Assembly (NCBI GenBank): GCA_038046625.1
Contig: JBBSVV010000007.1
Location: 18,541 to 42,475 of the forward strand
Source of the DNA: an archaeon
Lineage (GTDB): Archaea > Iainarchaeota > Iainarchaeia > Iainarchaeales > Iainarchaeaceae
DNA: 23,935 nt
Direction: 5' to 3'
Shown piece by piece: positions 1,808 through 22,435 of the stretch. The notes below the pieces were generated by a model that searched no databases, was not told the DNA's origin, and saw nothing but the letters and a program-made list of their open reading frames with translations. Within the stretch, counting starts at the first letter, position 1, and every line of letters starts with the position of its first letter. The position numbers and the translations under genes are program-made.

Positions 1808-2018
1808 ATGGGTATCCACAGGGGCGAGGGCGGCAAGGATGCCACGTGGGACACGACTTATTACAAACACTCTGACAAGAAAAATTCTATGTTGGACATT
1901 GATGAGGCAACTGCAGGCCTGCCTGAAAGCATATCATGGGGGCGCCGATACAAGCATTCGCTTTGTGTGCGTCAAAAAGGAAAGCGGTTCCGGCGAATAT
2001 ACGGTTAATTACTCCTGA
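1808..2018 (+). pseudogene. Short, probably frameshifted hypothetical ORF
   Basis: MGIHRGEGG...ISWG continues more protein-like in the +1 frame after the G5 run at 1938-1942 (GADTSIRFVCVKKESGSGEYTVNYS*, TGA 2016-2018). Confidence 0.3.
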
Positions 2019-2022
2019 CGCC

Positions 2023-2072
2023 TTTTTCTTTCTCCCACGCGAGAAAGAAAAAGCTGTGCCAAAAAGAAAGAG
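2023..2072 (+). repeat. Triplex-type element copy 1
   Basis: TTTTTCTTTCTC-CCACGC-GAGAAAGAAAAA-GCTGTGCC-AAAAAGAAAGAG; inverted and mirror match 12/12. Confidence 0.9.
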
Positions 2073-2140
2073 ACTTCAAATTTACACTTTTCTTTTAATG
2101 CATGTTTCCATGTGAAATCAAAGATTTCACGCGGCCCGGT

Positions 2141-2166
2141 CTTTTCGTGTCAACGAAAAGAAAAAA
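2141..2166 (-). repeat. Partial element (hairpin only) in the tRNA-Ser 3' trailer; possible terminator
   Basis: Minus strand TTTTTTCTTTTCGT-TGAC-ACGAAAAG directly after CCA; no third tract. Confidence 0.55.
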
Positions 2167-2225
2167 TGGCGCGGAGAAGGGGATTCGAACCCCCGCTCCC
2201 GTTAGGGAACACGCTTGCTGCAACC

Positions 2226-2274
2226 TTTTTCTTTTCGTTTGCACGAAAAGAAAAACGTTGGCGAAAAAGAAAAG
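2226..2274 (+). repeat. Triplex-type element copy 2 (in the tRNA-Ser intron)
   Basis: TTTTTCTTTTC-GTTTGCAC-GAAAAGAAAAA-CGTTGGCG-AAAAAGAAAAG; 11/11. Confidence 0.9.
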
Positions 2275-2280
2275 TGCTAT

Positions 2281-2331
2281 TTTCTTTCTTTTCCGCTAAC
2301 GCTTTTCTTTCTCTTGCAAGAGAAAGAAAAG
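2281..2331 (-). repeat. Triplex-type element copy 3 (in the tRNA-Ser intron, inverted relative to copy 2)
   Basis: Minus strand CTTTTCTTTCTCT-TGCA-AGAGAAAGAAAAG-CGTTAGCG-GAAAAGAAAGAAA; mirror match 12/13. Confidence 0.9.
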
Positions 2332-2380
2332 GGTTATTCCAGGCGTGCGCATTGGACCGCTCTGCCATCTCCGCAACACC

Positions 2381-2428
2381 TTTTCTTTTTCTTGGCAGAA
2401 AAAGAAAAGCTGTACCAAAAGAAAAAGA
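2381..2428 (+). repeat. Triplex-type element copy 4 (abuts the tRNA-Ser 5' end)
   Basis: TTTTCTTTTTCT-TGGC-AGAAAAAGAAAA-GCTGTACC-AAAAGAAAAAGA; 12/12. Confidence 0.9.
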
Positions 2429-2531
2429 GCCAGAATAAGATTAAAAGCCTGTACCAAAAAAGAAAGCATGGTATTTGCTGATGAAAAAGAGCCTGAATAA
2501 GGTTAAAAAAGCTGGGTAGTGCTGGTTTACT

Positions 2532-4657: not shown

Positions 4658-4870
4658 AGTTCTCACCAAAGAATATTGCTTCTCAACTATTTAAATAATT
4701 TACGTTAAAAACGTTAATTGCGTGCATGTGCCTATTAGGTATTTGGGCAGGATTCAGAAAGCCTCTGGCGCAACAGTTTCGGCTGTTGGGTGCGAGTACT
4801 ATCTTCATCTTGTGGCTCGATAGTAAATTTGGCTGTTGGGTGCGATAATTATCCACTTTGCAAGGGGATA

Positions 4871-8647: not shown

Positions 8648-9325
8648 ATGAACCAAAAAAAGAACATCGCAATCTGCGTCCCCTCGGGGCGCTTTGTCGA
8701 CTTCAGCTTCTTCAAGTCATACGCGAATACGATAGGGCAACTGATGCTGGCTTACAACACCGTTACCCTTACGGTTGCTTCGCCATTGATTGCGGAGAAC
8801 CGAAACGAAATACTCCGCAAGGCCTTTTCCATTGAGGAAAAAACTCCCGGATTCCTGATTGATTATTTGCTGTGGATTGACAACGACATTTCGTTCTCCT
8901 TTGAGCAGGCCAGGAAACTTTTCTCGCACCTCGAAAGCGGCAAGGATTTCATTTCAGGAACCTACTTCAATCTCGTGGGAGAGGAAATAAAGCCGGTCGC
9001 ATACAAAACAAAGGGCGAGGGCTATGAGTGGCTATCCGAAAAACAATTGTTCGGAACAATGGAAGTTGACTCTGCTGGATTCGGTTTCTGCGCAATGAAA
9101 ATGGATGTTTGCCGAAGAGTTTTCGAAAAATTCAAGCCTCGCCCTTTTGACATGCGCTACCTAGCAAATGGCTCCGTCATTACCGAGGACCAGTTGTTTT
9201 GCGAGCGCGCGAAAGAGCTTGGCTATAAAATATGGCTCGACTCGGAATTGGTTGTGAGGCACGCGAAAGGATTCCTGCCGCCGCAACCTTTTTCTTTCTC
9301 TTACAAAGAGAAAGAAAAACCTTGA
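8648..9325 (+). CDS. GT-A fold (GT2-like) glycosyltransferase
   Basis: IAICVPS, RNEI, LLWIDND (DxD), VDSAGFGF, TEDQLFC, VRH motifs; C-terminus runs into a triplex element. Confidence 0.85.
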   Translation: MNQKKNIAICVPSGRFVDFSFFKSYANTIGQLMLAYNTVTLTVASPLIAENRNEILRKAFSIEEKTPGFLIDYLLWIDNDISFSFEQARKLFSHLESGKDFISGTYFNLVGEEIKPVAYKTKGEGYEWLSEKQLFGTMEVDSAGFGFCAMKMDVCRRVFEKFKPRPFDMRYLANGSVITEDQLFCERAKELGYKIWLDSELVVRHAKGFLPPQPFSFSYKEKEKP

Positions 9326-9341
9326 CGAAAAAGAAAGAGAA
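9289..9341 (+). repeat. Triplex-type element copy 5 (between convergent GT and proA ends)
   Basis: TTTTTCTTTCTCTT-ACA-AAGAGAAAGAAAAA-CCTTGACG-AAAAAGAAAGAGAA; 14/14. Confidence 0.92.
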
Positions 9342-9347
9342 AAAAAA

Positions 9348-10646
9348 TCACTTCAGTTTTTTGTGCAGGAACTTTTTCGCATTTTTTCCTGAATAATCCG
9401 CGACAATGTGCCCATTGCCTTTCAGCAAATACTTGTAGCTTAAAAGCGCTTCAACCCCGCTCGGGCCGCGCGCATGTATTTTCCCAGTTGAAATGCCCAC
9501 TTCCGCGCCCTTTCCATACCTGTAACCGTCTGCAAAGCGCGTTGACGCGTTCCAGTAGACTCCAGCAGAATCAACAGCCTGCAGGAATTTTGCGGCATTC
9601 TTCCTGTCTTCTGTTATTATGCCGTCAGTGTGCTTCGAGCCGAACCTGTTTATGTGTTCGATTGCCTCCTCAACACCCTTCACTGTTTTTATTGAAAGTA
9701 TCAAATCGTTGTACTCCGTTGCCCAGTCTTCTTCACTTGCGTTTTTGGCTTCGAAGCCCGCTTTCCCGAGAATCGCGAGCGCCTTTTCATCGCACCTGAG
9801 TTCCACTTTTCCGGCGAGCGCTTTTGCATACTGCGGCAAAAACTTTTTCGCAATTTTTTCATGCACGAGAAGCGTTTCCATTGCATTGCAGACTGCGGGG
9901 TATTGGCATTTCGCGTCCACGCAGATTTTCACGGCTTTTTTGATGTCCGCCTTTTCATCCACGTACTCGTGGCAGATTCCATCAGAATGCCCAAGCACGG
10001 GAATGCTGGAGTTCTCCTGGATGAACTTCACGAATGCGCTGCTTCCCCTCGGGATAATGAGGTCAATGCGGGAGTTCATTTTGATTAGCTCCTGAACCGC
10101 TTCCCTTGAATCAACAAGCTGCACGGCTTCAAAAGGCAAACCAGTTCCTTTCAGAGCGGCCTGAACGCAATCCAGAAGCGCCCTGTTCGTGTTCAATGCC
10201 TCGCTTCCGCCCTTCAAAATCACGGCGTTTCCCGTCTTGATTGAAAGCGAGCTTATCTGAACAAGCGCATCGGGGCGCGCCTCGAAAACCGCGCAAATTA
10301 CTCCTATAGGAGTTGAGATTTGCTCCAGCTCGAGCCCCTTATCGAGAAGCGTTTTTGAAATAGTTTTCCCCACAGGATCAGGCTGTTTCTTCACCCCTTC
10401 AATCTCATGCAGAATTTCGGAAAACTTTTCCTCCGAGAGAAGCAGCCTTTTCAGGAGCTGTGCTGCAAGATTATTTTTTTTGGCTTCGGCAACATCCTTT
10501 TCGTTTGCGGCAATTATTTTAGCTTTGCTTTTTTTCATTTCCAAAACGATGAGTGCGAGTGCCCTGTCCCTTTCTTTTGCGCTTGAAATGCTCATTGCGA
10601 GAAAAGCCTTTTTTGCGAGAACCGCCTTTTCATTTGCTTCGCTCAT
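9348..10646 (-). CDS. proA: Gamma-glutamyl phosphate reductase
   Basis: PIGVICAVFEARP, LKGGSEA, IIPRGS, CNAMETLLVH, NASTRFADG, EVGISTGKIHARGP. Confidence 0.97.
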   Translation of the reverse strand: MSEANEKAVLAKKAFLAMSISSAKERDRALALIVLEMKKSKAKIIAANEKDVAEAKKNNLAAQLLKRLLLSEEKFSEILHEIEGVKKQPDPVGKTISKTLLDKGLELEQISTPIGVICAVFEARPDALVQISSLSIKTGNAVILKGGSEALNTNRALLDCVQAALKGTGLPFEAVQLVDSREAVQELIKMNSRIDLIIPRGSSAFVKFIQENSSIPVLGHSDGICHEYVDEKADIKKAVKICVDAKCQYPAVCNAMETLLVHEKIAKKFLPQYAKALAGKVELRCDEKALAILGKAGFEAKNASEEDWATEYNDLILSIKTVKGVEEAIEHINRFGSKHTDGIITEDRKNAAKFLQAVDSAGVYWNASTRFADGYRYGKGAEVGISTGKIHARGPSGVEALLSYKYLLKGNGHIVADYSGKNAKKFLHKKLK

Positions 10647-12227: not shown

Positions 12228-12410
12228 ATATCAAAGGACAAAAATATGGATACAAAATTTGTCCTTTGATATAGCAGACCACGAAAGTTTTTCGGCATTT
12301 ATGGTGGTCTGCTAGATAGCAGACCAAAAATGTCGCCGAAATATTTTATTGGTCTGCTATAGCTATCAAAAGACATTTAAAAAAGTTTCAGAATTAATGT
12401 CTTTTGATAT
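12228..12410. repeat. A-B-B-A array of four ~45-bp palindromic units
   Basis: Arms ATATCAAAGGACAAA (15 bp), TAGCAGACCAC (11), ATAGCAGACCAA (12) and TATCAAAAGACATT (14), each with a perfect inverted partner. Confidence 0.9.
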
Positions 12411-13549: not shown

Positions 13550-13678
13550 ATGAGTTTTTCTATTCAATCCCCAAATAGGGGTGAAATAGTCAGAGCCATT
13601 GAGGCTATCGAGAATGGCGAGGAGCTTACCGACAGGGAGCTCTGGATTCTGGAAGGGCTAGGGGGCGATTTTGAATGA
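13550..13678 (+). CDS. Small hypothetical protein (42 aa)
   Basis: GGAGGTGG SD; MSFSIQSPNRGEIVRAIEAIENGEELTDRELWILEGLGGDFE; ATGA overlap with the next ORF. Confidence 0.6.
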   Translation: MSFSIQSPNRGEIVRAIEAIENGEELTDRELWILEGLGGDFE

Positions 13679-13827
13679 GTCGCTCCGTTTTCCTTTTCAT
13701 TTTCCTATTTTGCATTGCTCCGTTGTTCTGGCTTTATGTCCTCACAGGGAAAGAGTGGCTTTTGGATTTGGCGATGCATGCCCTTTCCTTTTTCTTCGGC
13801 TTTTCTTTTGCGGAGGCGATTCAATGA
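13675..13827 (+). CDS. Small membrane protein (50 aa)
   Basis: MSRSVFLFIFLFCIAPLFWLYVLTGKEWLLDLAMHALSFFFGFSFAEAIQ; ATGA overlaps at both ends. Confidence 0.55.
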   Translation: MSRSVFLFIFLFCIAPLFWLYVLTGKEWLLDLAMHALSFFFGFSFAEAIQ

Positions 13828-14819
13828 CCGCACCGGCAATGTACCCTTCCAATAACTCTTTGATAAAGGTCAATGAACATCTATCCATGCGATTTAATCT
13901 CTTTGATTTGCACGATTCGGCCGAAGACATTAATGTAAGGCGTTTGATAAGGGTTTACTCCGTTGTGCCAAAATACTCACAATTCAAGTCTGGGCCTTGG
14001 GCGGGGCAGGCTATCAGAGTTACTTCATTTCTTAGAAAGGTGAATGAGAAGCTTAAGAAAGAAATCGGCTCAGGATGGAAAAGAGAATGGCTGAATAACA
14101 TCGGCTATAAGTTTGCCCTGAAAAGTATTGGCGATTGGTTTATTGGGAGGGCTTCGGTTCCTTTAATAGCTTTAAAGAAGCTGGAAGTATTTGGTTTGGA
14201 CTGTGAAGTAAGTGTGCTTCTTAACAATTGTAATTATTTTTCTTGTACCACAAGAGCCCCTTATAAATTGCCGCATTTTTTGACTCCTGATTTGGCATAT
14301 CTAACAGGTGCTATACTTGGTGATGGTCACATAAGAAGGACTGAAGATAAAATTTCCTTTGAGGTTTCCGAAAAATGGCTTTCGAATAAGTTTATTGAAA
14401 AAGTTGTAGCTGTTTTTGAACAAAAATTAAGAGAAAGTATTCGCATAGGCCGTGGGAAAGATAAATATTTGGCGAGGTTTGACAATAAATCAGCTAAAAG
14501 ATTGTTCACAAAAATAATTGGAATCCCTTCCGGAAAAAAGTCGCATATTATCACGGTCCCTGAATTGATAAAAGCGTCTTCAAAAGAATGTCAAACCGCT
14601 TTTCTTGAAGGGGTATTTGACACAGATGGTGGGAGCAGAGGCAAGAACCGCCTAGGTTTAACGAGTGCCTCGAAACAGTTCAGGGACGGCATAATTGATT
14701 TACTTGAAGTGCAAGGTATCAATGCTTTTAAGGATGAGTGGGTAAATAAAATGTATAACCGGTCTTACTACGGATTAAGGCTCTCAAAAGGAGTGAAGCC
14801 AAGCTTTATGCAGGAGTAG
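13824..14819 (+). CDS. Free-standing two-motif LAGLIDADG endonuclease-like protein
   Basis: LAYLTGAILGDGHI and AFLEGVFDTDGG motifs; probable start MTAP at 13824 (GGAGG SD); no intein termini; stop TAG lies inside tRNA-Leu. Confidence 0.88.
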   Translation: MTAPAMYPSNNSLIKVNEHLSMRFNLFDLHDSAEDINVRRLIRVYSVVPKYSQFKSGPWAGQAIRVTSFLRKVNEKLKKEIGSGWKREWLNNIGYKFALKSIGDWFIGRASVPLIALKKLEVFGLDCEVSVLLNNCNYFSCTTRAPYKLPHFLTPDLAYLTGAILGDGHIRRTEDKISFEVSEKWLSNKFIEKVVAVFEQKLRESIRIGRGKDKYLARFDNKSAKRLFTKIIGIPSGKKSHIITVPELIKASSKECQTAFLEGVFDTDGGSRGKNRLGLTSASKQFRDGIIDLLEVQGINAFKDEWVNKMYNRSYYGLRLSKGVKPSFMQE

Positions 14820-14893
14820 CGAAGCGGTCAAACGTGCACGGTTTAGGGCCGTGTGGCTTAGTGCCTTCGGAGGTTCGAATCCTCCCTCCTGCA
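14810..14893 (+). tRNA. tRNA-Leu(TAG)
   Basis: GCAGGAG/CTCCTGC-A acceptor, CACGG-TT-TAG-GG-CCGTG anticodon arm, long variable arm, GTTCGAATC T loop. Confidence 0.95.
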
Positions 14894-14898
14894 TAACC

Positions 14899-15176: not shown

Positions 15177-15297
15177 CGCTCCTGCTGGGATTCGAACCCA
15201 GGTCAAGGGCTCGTTCCAACCATTTTTGGTCAAGCTTTTTTGCCTGCAAAAAAGGTTGCCGGAAGCCCTTATGCTATCCGGGCTACACCACAGGAGC
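15177..15297 (-). tRNA. tRNA-Arg(CCG) with a 47-nt intron at 37/38 (15212-15258)
   Basis: GCTCCTG/CAGGAGC-G acceptor; AGGGC-TT-CCG-G|A-GCCCT; perfect BHB (TTCC/GGAA central helix, AACC/GGTT outer helix). Confidence 0.94.
15223..15253 (-). repeat. Miniature triplex-type element copy 7 (in the tRNA-Arg intron)
   Basis: Minus strand AACC-TTTTTT-GCAGGC-AAAAAA-GCTTGACC-AAAAA; same AACC start and 8-nt linker as the longer copies. Confidence 0.75.
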
Positions 15298-15303
15298 AAC
15301 ACC

Positions 15304-15354
15304 TTTTTTCTTTTCTTGGCAGAAAAGAAAAAAGCTGTACCAAAAAAAGAAAAG
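15304..15354 (+). repeat. Triplex-type element copy 8 (abuts the tRNA-Arg(CCG) 5' end)
   Basis: TTTTTTCTTTTCT-TGGC-AGAAAAGAAAAAA-GCTGTACC-(A)AAAAAAGAAAAG. Confidence 0.88.
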
Positions 15355-20932: not shown

Positions 20933-22435
20933 TCATTCAACACTTAATGTTGGGCGCACCAAAACGCGGTATCCTTTCCTGTTCTTCATCTGTACGCTCA
21001 CATCATTTCCGCTCACAATGCTGAGGTTTGTTTCGCATTCTTTCCTCAAATCCGCGCGAAGGTCAATCATTGAGCCTGCGGAAACCGCAAAAGCCAGCCC
21101 ATTGTTCTGGAATTCCCTCAGCATTTCCGAAATTTCCCTTGAAACAATCAGTTCCTTTTCATTCGGCAGGATTTTTCCCGCTTCAGGAATCACCGCAATC
21201 GCCTTCACATTCCGGCCTTTCCCGCCCTTGAAAAATGCTGAAAGGGAACGCAGTATAGAATGCGCGATTAGTGCGGCGACTTTTTCATCAACCGAATCCA
21301 CGCGTATAACCGTTGCCCTGGCAATGTTGGCGGAGCTTCCCTTCACCATGTCCTCGACATTGTTTTCGCCGCCGAAAATGTTCGGGTAAATTATTTCCGC
21401 AAGCTTCATTATGCGCGCGGTCTTCTGAATCTGGAACTCGCTGAACTCCTCGGTCTGCTTCGTCTTGGAAATCGCCTCAATAAGTTCGGCCGTTGATTTC
21501 ACCTTTCCTTTTGCGAGCACCATTTTGAGTATCCTCGCGAAATCCTTTTCCCCGACGCCGAGGATTTCCGCGAACCCATCGGCAGAAAGAGTGTTCAGGT
21601 CAACCACAATGCTTTCCCCAGGGGTAAGGGTTTTCACGGGGAAGCCAATCGGGTCCAAATCAACCATGTACTTCTGGAGTTCCGCGGAATTCTTGCTGCC
21701 CTGTGCCATTTTCTGGTACGAATTGTCCCGGTCAAAAATTATGGCGGGCGTGCTGGAAAGCAGCGCACCTTCAATGATGACCTGCAGCACCCTTTTCCTG
21801 TCCTTTGGTTCGCCATCCGTGACAATGGTGCGCATGAAGAGCGCGAGCGGCTCGGCCACTTTCTGCCTGTCACGCGTCAGGCCGATTATTACCTCGCCTT
21901 TCGTGACCGATTTCACGACTTTATCGCCTATGCCCTCGGCTGTTGTGTGCGAGGCCGTCGCGAGCAATGGCGTCAACATGGGCTGCGCAAAGAACGCCGA
22001 CTGTACGGACTCATTGGCTTCCGAAATTTCTTCAAGGGTGAGCTCGTATGCCTTTGAAACATCCTTGGTGAGCATGGCCGAGGTTGAAAGCCTTTTTACA
22101 AGAGAATCGACTTCGCGCGTGAAGTCATCTTCCGTCCAGCGCACATAAGCGGGTTTGCTGCCCAATAAAAGGAATTTCATTGTCTGGCTCTCGTCATGCT
22201 TTGTAATGACAAGCGCTTCGCGCGGCAGGGTTTCAACAAACGCCTCTGCGTCCCCCGTCGCGTGCATGACCTTGTAAAGCTCGACAACGGCGCCCTCAAC
22301 CCTATCGAGCTTTTTTTCAAAAACAAGCACCATTAGTATCTTTTCCGGGTTTGAGTAAAGCTCGACCTCGTGCTGCTGGAATTTGCCCGAAAACAGCTTT
22401 TCCCACGGCCCATTGGCTATCCTGAACAGTTCCAT
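20933..22435 (-). CDS. HerA/FtsK-like ATPase-fold protein with degenerate Walker motifs
   Basis: TIVTDGEPKDRKR at the expected Walker A position, PAIIFD, AVIPEA at the expected Walker B position, GLAFAVS strand; 500 aa. Confidence 0.6.
   Translation of the reverse strand: MELFRIANGPWEKLFSGKFQQHEVELYSNPEKILMVLVFEKKLDRVEGAVVELYKVMHATGDAEAFVETLPREALVITKHDESQTMKFLLLGSKPAYVRWTEDDFTREVDSLVKRLSTSAMLTKDVSKAYELTLEEISEANESVQSAFFAQPMLTPLLATASHTTAEGIGDKVVKSVTKGEVIIGLTRDRQKVAEPLALFMRTIVTDGEPKDRKRVLQVIIEGALLSSTPAIIFDRDNSYQKMAQGSKNSAELQKYMVDLDPIGFPVKTLTPGESIVVDLNTLSADGFAEILGVGEKDFARILKMVLAKGKVKSTAELIEAISKTKQTEEFSEFQIQKTARIMKLAEIIYPNIFGGENNVEDMVKGSSANIARATVIRVDSVDEKVAALIAHSILRSLSAFFKGGKGRNVKAIAVIPEAGKILPNEKELIVSREISEMLREFQNNGLAFAVSAGSMIDLRADLRKECETNLSIVSGNDVSVQMKNRKGYRVLVRPTLSVE

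Follow-up and report, generated by a model that had tools for sequence, protein, structure and literature searches.

Introduction

The nearest described relatives of the repeat reported here are the bacterial intrastrand triplex repeats PIT, BoxC and TMECO. In the main text of Holder et al. 2015 (PMC4666352), class II elements are arranged as a pyrimidine tract, a purine tract and a reverse-Hoogsteen purine tract, and class IV elements as a Hoogsteen tract, a pyrimidine tract and a purine tract. The ITxF search defined there accepts stems of 6-15 nt with both loops of 1-6 nt, and the TMECO/BoxC consensus given there is G/C-rich (CCCTCNCCC N3-6 GGGNGAGGG N3 GGGNGAGGG). Here, we analysed a stretch of 23,935 nt from an archaeon of the Iainarchaeaceae (assembly GCA_038046625.1, contig JBBSVV010000007.1, positions 18,541 to 42,475), referred to below as the window. 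It contains a tRNA-Ser(GGA) gene whose 121-nt intron is filled by two inverted copies of an A/T-rich, three-tract repeat.

Archaeal tRNA introns are cut at positions inside the bulges of a bulge-helix-bulge (BHB) motif, and long introns can bear cargo, such as the C/D box guide in the tRNA-Trp intron. Two further systems have features in common with the repeat: REP/BIME elements with their RAYT transposases are short extragenic hairpin repeats at gene ends, often in inverted pairs, and the MALAT1/MEN-beta triple helix lies upstream of a tRNA-like structure that is cleaved by RNase P. With regard to the origin of tRNA introns, Fujishima et al. reportedly described, in 2010, transposed tRNA introns of Thermoproteales. 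For Caldiarchaeum, one report describes tRNA gene disruption by a mobile element (PMC3293823), and a 2026 preprint on Asgard tRNA introns still treats the route of intron arrival as an open question.

Results

Two inverted copies of a repeat make up the tRNA-Ser(GGA) intron

A regular expression written for the repeat divides the 121-nt intron without remainder into copy A, a short centre, copy B in the opposite orientation and a GCAGCA flank, the last two together measuring 59 nt (Table 1). Copy A consists of UAAC, C, a 13-nt pyrimidine arm, a UGCA loop, a 13-nt purine arm, C, GUUA, GCG and a 14-nt purine third tract. Copy B, read in the tRNA sense, begins with a third pyrimidine tract, which is followed by the pyrimidine arm and then the purine arm. 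An original prediction, made from the letters of the window alone, had described an intron of two inverted copies around a centre of about 6 nt. The intron is real and its coordinates proved exact; the centre measures 5 nt. Together with the neighbouring copies, the layout of the locus mimics two genes: the leader copy precedes exon 1, which trailer-type copy A follows, and leader-type copy B stands before exon 2, after which comes a truncated trailer hairpin.

The splice sites lie in a predicted near-canonical BHB motif with one mismatch. Its central helix is formed by C32-G, U33-A and G34-C via the CAG of the flank, and the fourth position is a G35.G mismatch. The bulges are A36 A37|U on the 5' side and CA|A38 on the 3' side, and an inner AACC/GGUU helix is possible. 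For splicing, the source assembly encodes a single endonuclease of 207 aa, in which tRNA_int_endo_N and tRNA_int_endo domains are combined and which gave the only match to PF01974.

After removal of the intron from the canonical 37/38 site, the exons join into an intact, complete class II cloverleaf, as judged by reading the sequence: acceptor GCGGAGA/UCUCCGC, anticodon stem CACGC/GCGUG, loop CUGGAAA, a long variable arm, T loop UUCGAAU, discriminator G73 and an encoded CCA. The source assembly (G000) belongs to a tiny groundwater archaeon and comprises 986 kb in 57 contigs, with a completeness of 85%. The exon-1 pattern has a single match in it, so the gene in Table 1 is the sole Ser(GGA) gene seen in this 85%-complete assembly. 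As to the identity of the source, the histidyl-tRNA synthetase (HisRS) gene of the window shares 83% identity with that of Candidatus Iainarchaeum andersonii, and its further matches are to Iainarchaeum/Diapherotrites metagenome-assembled genomes, which places the lineage in the Iainarchaeia (DPANN).

The Rfam tRNA search and ARAGORN run without the intron option both missed the gene. With introns allowed, ARAGORN found it with a 121-nt intron, shifted the boundary by 2 nt and named it tRNA-Ala(GGC), a name that arises because the intron was set 2 nt off. The long variable arm, G73 and the predicted bulge geometry fit Ser(GGA), not Ala. For annotation, this means that standard tRNA finders overlooked or misnamed an essential gene. 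Just 34 tRNA genes were detected in the source assembly, and more interrupted tRNA genes may therefore be hidden there. In the Rfam scan of the window, only ordinary tRNAs reached the gathering score, and the intron was assigned to no Rfam family.

Table 1. Features of the tRNA-Ser(GGA) locus, with positions in the window, strand and basis of the assignment.
Feature	Position	Strand	Basis
Bulge-helix-bulge intron, 121 nt, between 37 and 38	2216..2336	-	sequence, folds, independent contigs
Intron copy A, 57 nt, class II polarity in tRNA sense	2280..2336	-	pattern match
Copy A: outer strand; pyrimidine arm; loop	2333-2336; 2319-2331; 2315-2318	-	pattern match
Copy A: purine arm; outer strand; third tract	2302-2314; 2297-2300; 2280-2293	-	pattern match
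Intron centre UAGCA, 5 nt, separating the two third tracts	2275..2279	-	pattern match
Intron copy B, class II on + strand, equal to class IV (Hoogsteen-type) in tRNA sense	2222..2274	+	pattern match
Copy B: AACC flank; pyrimidine arm; loop	2222-2225; 2226-2237; 2238-2243	+	pattern match
Copy B: purine arm; third tract	2244-2255; 2263-2274	+	pattern match
Intron 3' flank GCAGCA	2216..2221	-	sequence; minimum free energy and constrained folds
tRNA-Ser(GGA), class II, CCA encoded, split at 37/38	2167..2374	-	sequence reading; ARAGORN with introns
Exon 1, 38 nt, 3' end CUGGAA (anticodon GGA plus A37)	2337..2374	-	sequence
Exon 2, 49 nt, first base A38, CCA encoded	2167..2215	-	sequence
Leader copy, hairpin foot 5-6 nt from tRNA 5' end, class IV in tRNA sense	2376..2429	+	pattern match
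TATA-like TTTTAATC, 10 nt upstream of the third tract of the leader copy; candidate promoter	2439..2446	-	inferred
Truncated copy, hairpin only, directly after CCA; T6 run a likely oligo-T terminator (inferred)	2140..2165	-	
Complete copy about 95 nt downstream of tRNA-Ser(GGA)	2018..2072	+	pattern match

The three tracts of the repeat covary

Each unit of the repeat combines a 4-bp outer helix, a C.C mismatch and a pyrimidine:purine helix of 12-14 bp with a third tract, the mirror image of its purine arm. The source assembly contains 39 perfect pyrimidine/purine hairpins with arms of at least 9 nt, and 31 of them carry a mirror purine tract on exactly one side. A degenerate three-tract pattern matched six times in the window and not once in any of 100 dinucleotide shuffles. 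Arm sequences vary widely, with 24 distinct arms among 30 non-redundant copies of the source assembly. Within a copy, the third tract is the mirror of the arm along 94% of that arm, compared with 78% for the arms of other copies, and none of 10000 permutations scored as high as the observed data. The mirror outscored a direct repeat in 26 of the 30 copies, with three ties and one loss.

For positional statistics, the copies of the source assembly were combined with those in fetched DNA of relatives to give a set of 114. Canonical triplets, T-A*A or C-G*G, occupy 1365 of the 1474 stem positions in this set. A third-tract G stands opposite 265 of 318 C-G pairs and opposite only 30 of 1149 T-A pairs; the exceptions sit at stem ends, and just eight are found mid-stem. 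Stems measure 9-15 nt, and the second spacer is 7-8 nt long in 100 of the 114 copies, with 4 nt of it paired to the 5' flank. The arms are T/A-rich, e.g., CTTTTCTTTCTCT, with isolated G.C pairs. The tracts also change together in length: copy A of G015 and copy A of G013, two related genomes, differ by one base, and all three tracts share this difference.

The outer helix covaries as well. Past a conserved mismatch (62 of 84 copies have C.C there), a stretch of four bases in the 5' flank is paired to an equally long stretch of the linker, a helix that the original prediction had not noted. These positions are Watson-Crick in 49-69 of the 84 copies, compared with 26-39 in shuffles (0 of 1000 shuffles as high), and the covarying pairs include CAACC/CGTTG, TAACC/CGTTA, AAACC/CGTTT and CAGCC/CGCTG. 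The gap from the outer helix to the third tract is only 2-3 nt.

Internal hairpin mismatches occur in just nine of the 114 copies (five T:G, two C:A and two others), too few to tell the folding strand. In all seven distinct imperfect hairpins, a small and partly related sample, it is the purine arm that departs, the third tract and the pyrimidine arm remaining in agreement. They lie at C38, C5 and C34 of the source assembly and at loci L016, L068, L197 and L205, and the AAAGGAAAA variant is common to three unrelated loci. The imperfect hairpins point to a fold of the Hoogsteen strand, with the complement of the pyrimidine arm as the predicted central strand. Three-way covariation of this kind is a rare comparative signature of a triple helix, the physical fold being predicted. 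Both polarities preserve the three-tract pattern equally, in transcribed and in oppositely transcribed settings; therefore, the constraint probably does not stem from a role of the host transcript.

Outside the source assembly, the pattern was found in 20 of the 22 other genomes of the family, with up to 39 matches each, compared with 0-6 for backward-pattern controls. It is sparse elsewhere in the phylum sample, being present in 52 of 215 genomes overall, a count that may be too low for other lineages, as the pattern is tuned to arm sequences of the family. By this survey, the repeat appears to be specific to the family lineage of Candidatus Iainarchaeum (DPANN). A scan of viral contigs gave at least 112 stretches. 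Among the 80 listed and checked, nearly all were T/A homopolymers and only about six resembled real copies; the scan is uninformative because its matches are mostly plain homopolymers.

Copies adjoin RNA genes with the hairpin foot toward the exon

As the original prediction had suggested, the repeat is found outside introns as well. In the source assembly, 14 of 31 copies lie at or within tRNA genes, one directly follows the RNase P RNA and a hairpin-only copy follows the 23S rRNA. Others are located 6-10 nt past the stop codons of long open reading frames (ORFs) or before ORF starts. An Rfam search around 15 other copies gave only the 23S rRNA, the RNase P RNA and one tRNA.

At tRNA genes, the position and polarity of the copies follow a strict rule. 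In each of the 29 leader calls, the foot is the side nearest the gene, and the order in the tRNA sense is third tract, pyrimidine arm, purine arm. The 10 trailer calls, without exception, also have the foot nearest the gene, but in the order pyrimidine arm, purine arm, third tract. Within introns, the 5' splice site has seven class II calls (trailer polarity) at a distance of 4-9 nt, and the 3' splice site six class IV calls (leader polarity) at 3-12 nt. The sample includes overlapping calls and many orthologous Ser loci, and these counts overstate independence. The hairpin foot always faces the exon at tRNA-adjacent copies, in leaders, trailers and introns alike. At protein genes, where context was counted by stop and start distances and spurious ORFs arise inside the low-complexity repeats, 10 stop codons lie within 4 nt of the foot and seven within 5 nt of the third-tract side. 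Since stops adjoin either side of the element, the orientation rule is specific to RNA genes.

In five leader copies, the third tract is preceded by a TATA-like motif at a distance of 16-19 nt; in the remaining leaders, this motif is located elsewhere or absent. A fixed promoter geometry for leader copies was rejected, given that the spacing holds in these five leaders only.

One full copy of the window (9289-9341, + strand) is located between convergent genes. A 225-aa ORF (8648-9325) has its stop codon inside the hairpin of this copy, and a ProA-like gene (9348-10646, - strand) ends 7 nt from its third tract.

The intron takes many states within the family

tRNA-Ser(GGA) is present in 19 of 23 family genomes, and the site between positions 37 and 38 differs strongly among them (genera are given as g1 to g6). 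Six genomes have no intron at this site (G012, G004, G018 and G008 in g4; G014 and G002 in g2). Two inverted copies are present in another six (G000 in g1; G013 and G019 in g5; G022, G021 and G015 in g4), one copy in two (G001 in g1, G003 in g3) and four tandem copies in one (G009 in g5). The remaining four have an intron without the repeat, which measures 17 nt in G016 and 33 nt in G005 (both g5) and is a different insert of about 70 nt each in G006 (g6) and G011 (g2). Genus g4 by itself spans intron-less and two-copy alleles. The four copies in G009 (locus L052) are near-identical tandem 47-nt units of one polarity. The original prediction had offered colonisation of BHB introns by the repeat, as a neutral site, as one of its explanations. 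This fits the comparative data, in which the alleles of 19 relatives vary at a single 37/38 site.

The two-copy introns do not simply follow the genera. Copy A variants cut across them, with G000, G022 and G019 on one side and G015, G021 and G013 on the other. Copy B groups differently: G000 goes with G015 and G021 at 85% identity, and G022 with G019 at 95%. On these groupings, the parts of the two-copy intron are mosaic between genera. Copy A of G000 shares 93-95% identity with that of G022 and G019, and exon 2 only 81-83%. In G013 (locus L050), intron copy B and the leader copy of the same gene are identical along about 75 nt, a foreign structured insert of about 45 nt in the hairpin loop included. 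This identity points to recent gene conversion between leader and intron. A relative of this loop insert follows hairpin-only copies after the 23S rRNA and two tRNAs in the source assembly. No target-site duplication was detected at the intron junction: intron-less and intron-bearing alleles both read GGAA|AGCG there, and only an ambiguous A could count as duplicated.

The predicted fold of the intron RNA is a three-hairpin junction

From anticodon stem to anticodon stem, the minimum free energy (MFE) structure, calculated with Watson-Crick nearest-neighbour parameters, consists of three hairpins on a junction (-59.9 kcal/mol). The outer two are copy A and copy B, each with its outer helix, and the middle hairpin is formed by both third tracts; the structure retains the anticodon stem, the CUG/CAG pairing and the CAA bulge. 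The pre-tRNA region as a whole folds far more stably than its shuffles (z = -8.8). According to the original prediction, the AACC that starts each copy supplies the helix closing the BHB. AACC/GGUU can indeed form the inner BHB helix, but the local outer helices UAAC/GUUA and CAAC/GUUG are favoured: forcing the canonical BHB with AACC/GGUU gave -55.3 kcal/mol, 4.6 kcal/mol above the MFE. In the ensemble, the AACC/GGUU closing helix has a probability of about 0.24, compared with about 0.7 for the local outer helix.

Among six introns, the middle hairpin showed no specific covariation, its own pairs having an energy of -13.55 kcal/mol and swapped pairs -13.46 kcal/mol. Pairing of third tract with third tract was rejected as a selected feature, since own and swapped energies are nearly equal. 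The third tract tracks its own hairpin and not the third tract of the other copy, which speaks for a three-stranded constraint over inter-copy pairing. In the RNA, copy B alone has the polarity of a Hoogsteen helix (U-rich, U-rich, A-rich), and copy A has purine-motif polarity. To our knowledge, RNA does not adopt a triple helix of the latter polarity.

A check of the 121 nt for a C/D box guide found neither TGATGA nor CTGA. A C/D box guide RNA in the intron was rejected, as both the C box (RUGAUGA) and the D box (CUGA) are absent.

Other tRNA introns and features of the window

ARAGORN reported 10 intron-bearing tRNA genes in the source assembly. By strict criteria, the repeat is present in the introns of Ser(GGA), with two copies, and Ser(UGA), with one; the Pro(CGG) intron contains a short copy (arm 8, mirror 7). 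By eye, we recognised two degenerate tandem copies in the Tyr intron and a mini copy in the Arg(CCG) intron, and saw no repeat in the Thr, Glu, Leu(CAA), Ala and Met introns. The tRNA-Arg(CCG) gene lies in the window (15177-15297, - strand). Its 47-nt intron holds the miniature copy, with 8-nt arms and a short A tract, and a full leader copy is located at 15296-15354.

Three other features of the window were recorded. A 382-aa ORF with a LAGLIDADG_3 domain (13671-14819, + strand) runs about 10 nt into the 5' end of tRNA-Leu(UAG) (14809-14894, + strand). An inverted repeat of 45 nt (12270-12361, 76% complementary, 2-nt spacer) lies between proC-like and DUF3800 genes and is unrelated to the triplex-type repeat. 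A separate 26-nt direct repeat, TTCGGCTGTTGGGTGCGAG..., occurs twice (4778-4853, 21935-21960), just downstream of tRNA-Thr(GGU), and similar words follow tRNA-His and, in G001, tRNA-Ser.

Discussion

The reading that we favour, and whose chances we judge to be about even, is that the repeat is a DNA-level gene-boundary element and that the intron copies are passengers in a splice-competent BHB intron, turned over by recombination. The repeat would work or spread on the level of DNA at gene boundaries. Its T-runs, one in one direction and two in the other, may serve as archaeal oligo-T terminators, a role suggested because such runs fit established archaeal termination. The three-tract pattern may be kept through an intrastrand triple helix of one strand, and the T.A-T-rich composition with isolated C.G best fits the Hoogsteen (pyrimidine-motif) strand. 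The intron interior would then tolerate landing and recombination, provided that the BHB remains able to form. DNA recombination would gain, lose, multiply and swap the intron copies, and the splicing endonuclease EndA would excise them from the pre-tRNA, possibly by capturing the BHB conformer that lies 4.6 kcal/mol above the three-hairpin fold.

Several points weigh against the view of a DNA element with passenger copies. The two-copy plan in three genera, together with a copy A identity above that of exon 2, could mean selection on the intron RNA. A terminator role leaves the orientation of the foot toward the exon unexplained, and that rule fails at protein genes; in addition, the tRNA itself ought to be transcribed less readily when T-runs lie within its leader or intron. 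Triplexes of the purine motif are weak in A/T-rich DNA. Thermodynamic modelling makes the inner BHB helix a minority conformer, and the central helix holds the G.G mismatch. Finally, no enzyme or mechanism for mobility of the repeat was found, the Y1 transposase (PF01797) having been examined in 23 family genomes.

A bolder extension, tentative and in our judgement unlikely, is that the 11-14 consecutive U.A-U and C+.G-C triples with their 4-bp clamp are among the longest natural Hoogsteen helices. They would act at gene boundaries, in RNA or in nascent RNA on DNA. Possible roles would be a structure-assisted terminator that works in both directions and an end-protecting cap directly before RNase P and EndA sites, and insertion beside stems would be a still active route of BHB intron gain and remodelling.

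Purely selfish DNA is a rival that we think rather unlikely. The repeat would be a small non-autonomous mobile DNA whose three-stranded fold is the single-strand intermediate for a transposase or recombinase, and insertion beside stem-forming DNA (acceptor and anticodon stems) would yield the symmetric foot-toward-exon rule. Presence and absence vary among close relatives, tandem arrays and mosaic alleles occur, and genomes of the family hold from 0 to 39 pattern matches. In the frame of the element, leader and trailer copies both follow acceptor-stem 3'-strand sequence (again by sequence reading), and flank and linker covary like guide and target. However, the intron junction has no target-site duplication and a single copy has no terminal inverted repeats, observations on which a miniature inverted-repeat transposable element (MITE) was also rejected. 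The Y1 (IS200/RAYT-type) transposase is absent from the 85%-complete source assembly and present in only nine of the 23 family genomes, and three of three inspected Y1 loci are not flanked by copies; a Y1 link and membership in a REP/RAYT system were both rejected on these grounds. Moreover, the arms differ by coordinated changes (24 distinct among 30) and do not look like near-identical recent copies. The intron RNA, or the excised and circularised intron, could instead be functional itself, copy B having the capacity for an 11-triple U.A-U / C+.G-C helix that might stabilise the circle, keep the pre-tRNA splice-competent or bind a factor; these variants taken together remain distinctly unlikely to us. 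Besides the recurrence of the two-copy plan in six genomes of three genera and the conservation of copy A relative to exon 2, this idea gains from the near-perfect hairpins (nine mismatched copies in 114) and from the agreement of third tract and pyrimidine arm in seven of seven imperfect ones, as a Hoogsteen-strand fold predicts. Circular archaeal tRNA introns are established, too (PMC3326292). Set against this are six relatives without an intron, four introns without the repeat, copy numbers of 1, 2 or 4, and the purine-motif polarity, as far as we know not adopted by RNA, of copy A and of every single-copy intron seen. Identical copies also lie in untranscribed or oppositely transcribed contexts, and C/D boxes and an Rfam family are absent. 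The function that the original prediction had considered for the excised circle is unsupported: the C/D boxes are missing, as is the whole intron in six relatives.

A split-tRNA relic, in which the trailer element of a 5'-half gene was fused with the leader element of a 3'-half gene, is very unlikely in our view. The intron has precisely the layout of a trailer copy joined to a leader copy, its copy B end GGUU-GCAG (GCGG in G019) resembles the leader/tRNA junction GGTT|GCGG, and copy B of G013 matches the leader copy of the same gene. Yet none of 12 intron copies has a TATA-like motif between copies, no split Ser(GGA) was seen among 19 relatives, short repeat-free introns of 17 nt (G016) and 33 nt (G005) occupy the same site, and the identity in G013 is explained by content turnover through recent gene conversion. 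Hardly credible, finally, is an artefact, that is, a misassembled repeat region or a dead tRNA pseudogene, both of which had been named as possible refutations of the intron. The region is rich in repeats, and contigs from public runs break at 2347-2377. However, independent contigs from two runs of another study (X5, X6) show 0 differences over 1800-2376, which speaks clearly against misassembly of the locus, and the same architecture is present in five other genomes. A pseudogene is contradicted by the intact class II cloverleaf of the assembly's sole Ser(GGA) gene, which is conserved among relatives.

The tRNA-Ser(GGA) locus is an unusually legible case, with an intron body composed of a genomic repeat that is found outside tRNA genes, too. 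A single site displays every state across 19 relatives (none, short repeat-free, one, two and four copies), along with mosaic exchange between genera. It provides a concrete example of how archaeal tRNA introns get filled and reshaped. As the repeat adjoins RNA processing sites and carries three-way covariation, the biology of natural triplexes becomes testable here.

Comparison with known systems

No description of triplex-type repeats at archaeal tRNA genes was found in the searched literature, which covered few subscription journals and main texts without supplements; archaeal motifs might be listed in supplementary tables such as those of ITxF (PMC4666352). The tracts of the repeat follow the class II/IV plan of Hoyne and Holder, with a pyrimidine tract, a complementary purine tract and a mirror third tract. 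Like PIT, BoxC and TMECO in the main text of that paper (PMC4666352), it has three tracts on one strand, the complement of which gives the pyrimidine-motif class, and it occurs in many intergenic copies whose number varies strongly among close relatives and whose function is unassigned. TMECO has a fixed, G/C-rich consensus whose second loop measures 3 nt, whereas the copies described here are A/T-rich, have variable, covarying arms and a second loop of 7-8 nt, 4 nt of which pair with the 5' flank. A spacer of this length lies outside the ITxF loop setting, so ITxF settings would miss most copies. Membership in TMECO/BoxC was rejected on the T/A-rich arms. The copies are archaeal, adjoin tRNA exons and fill tRNA introns; tRNA is unmentioned in the main text of PMC4666352.

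At the level of layout, the leader copies and intron copy B resemble MALAT1: they are U-rich, U-rich, A-rich, and a tRNA 5' end or a splice site lies within 4-10 nt. This is a resemblance of layout only, with no homology implied and transcription of the first tract presumed, and trailer copies and copy A have the opposite polarity. The repeat shares with REP/BIME elements that its copies are short extragenic hairpins at gene ends, often in inverted pairs; in contrast to them, it has a mirror third tract, diverse arms and no conserved Y1 transposase. Like the tRNA-Trp intron, the tRNA-Ser(GGA) intron is long, located at 37/38 and expected to be excised and circularised, but its 121 nt contain a genome-wide repeat in place of C/D boxes.

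The nearest precedents for the gain of such introns are those of Thermoproteales and Caldiarchaeum. In these cases, related sequences reportedly likewise occur in different tRNA introns, introns are gained and lost over short times, and DNA-level mobile sequences have been proposed as the source. Unlike there, no recombinase is linked to the filler of the present intron, which is a small, structured and mostly extragenic repeat that also populates leaders, trailers and ORF ends.

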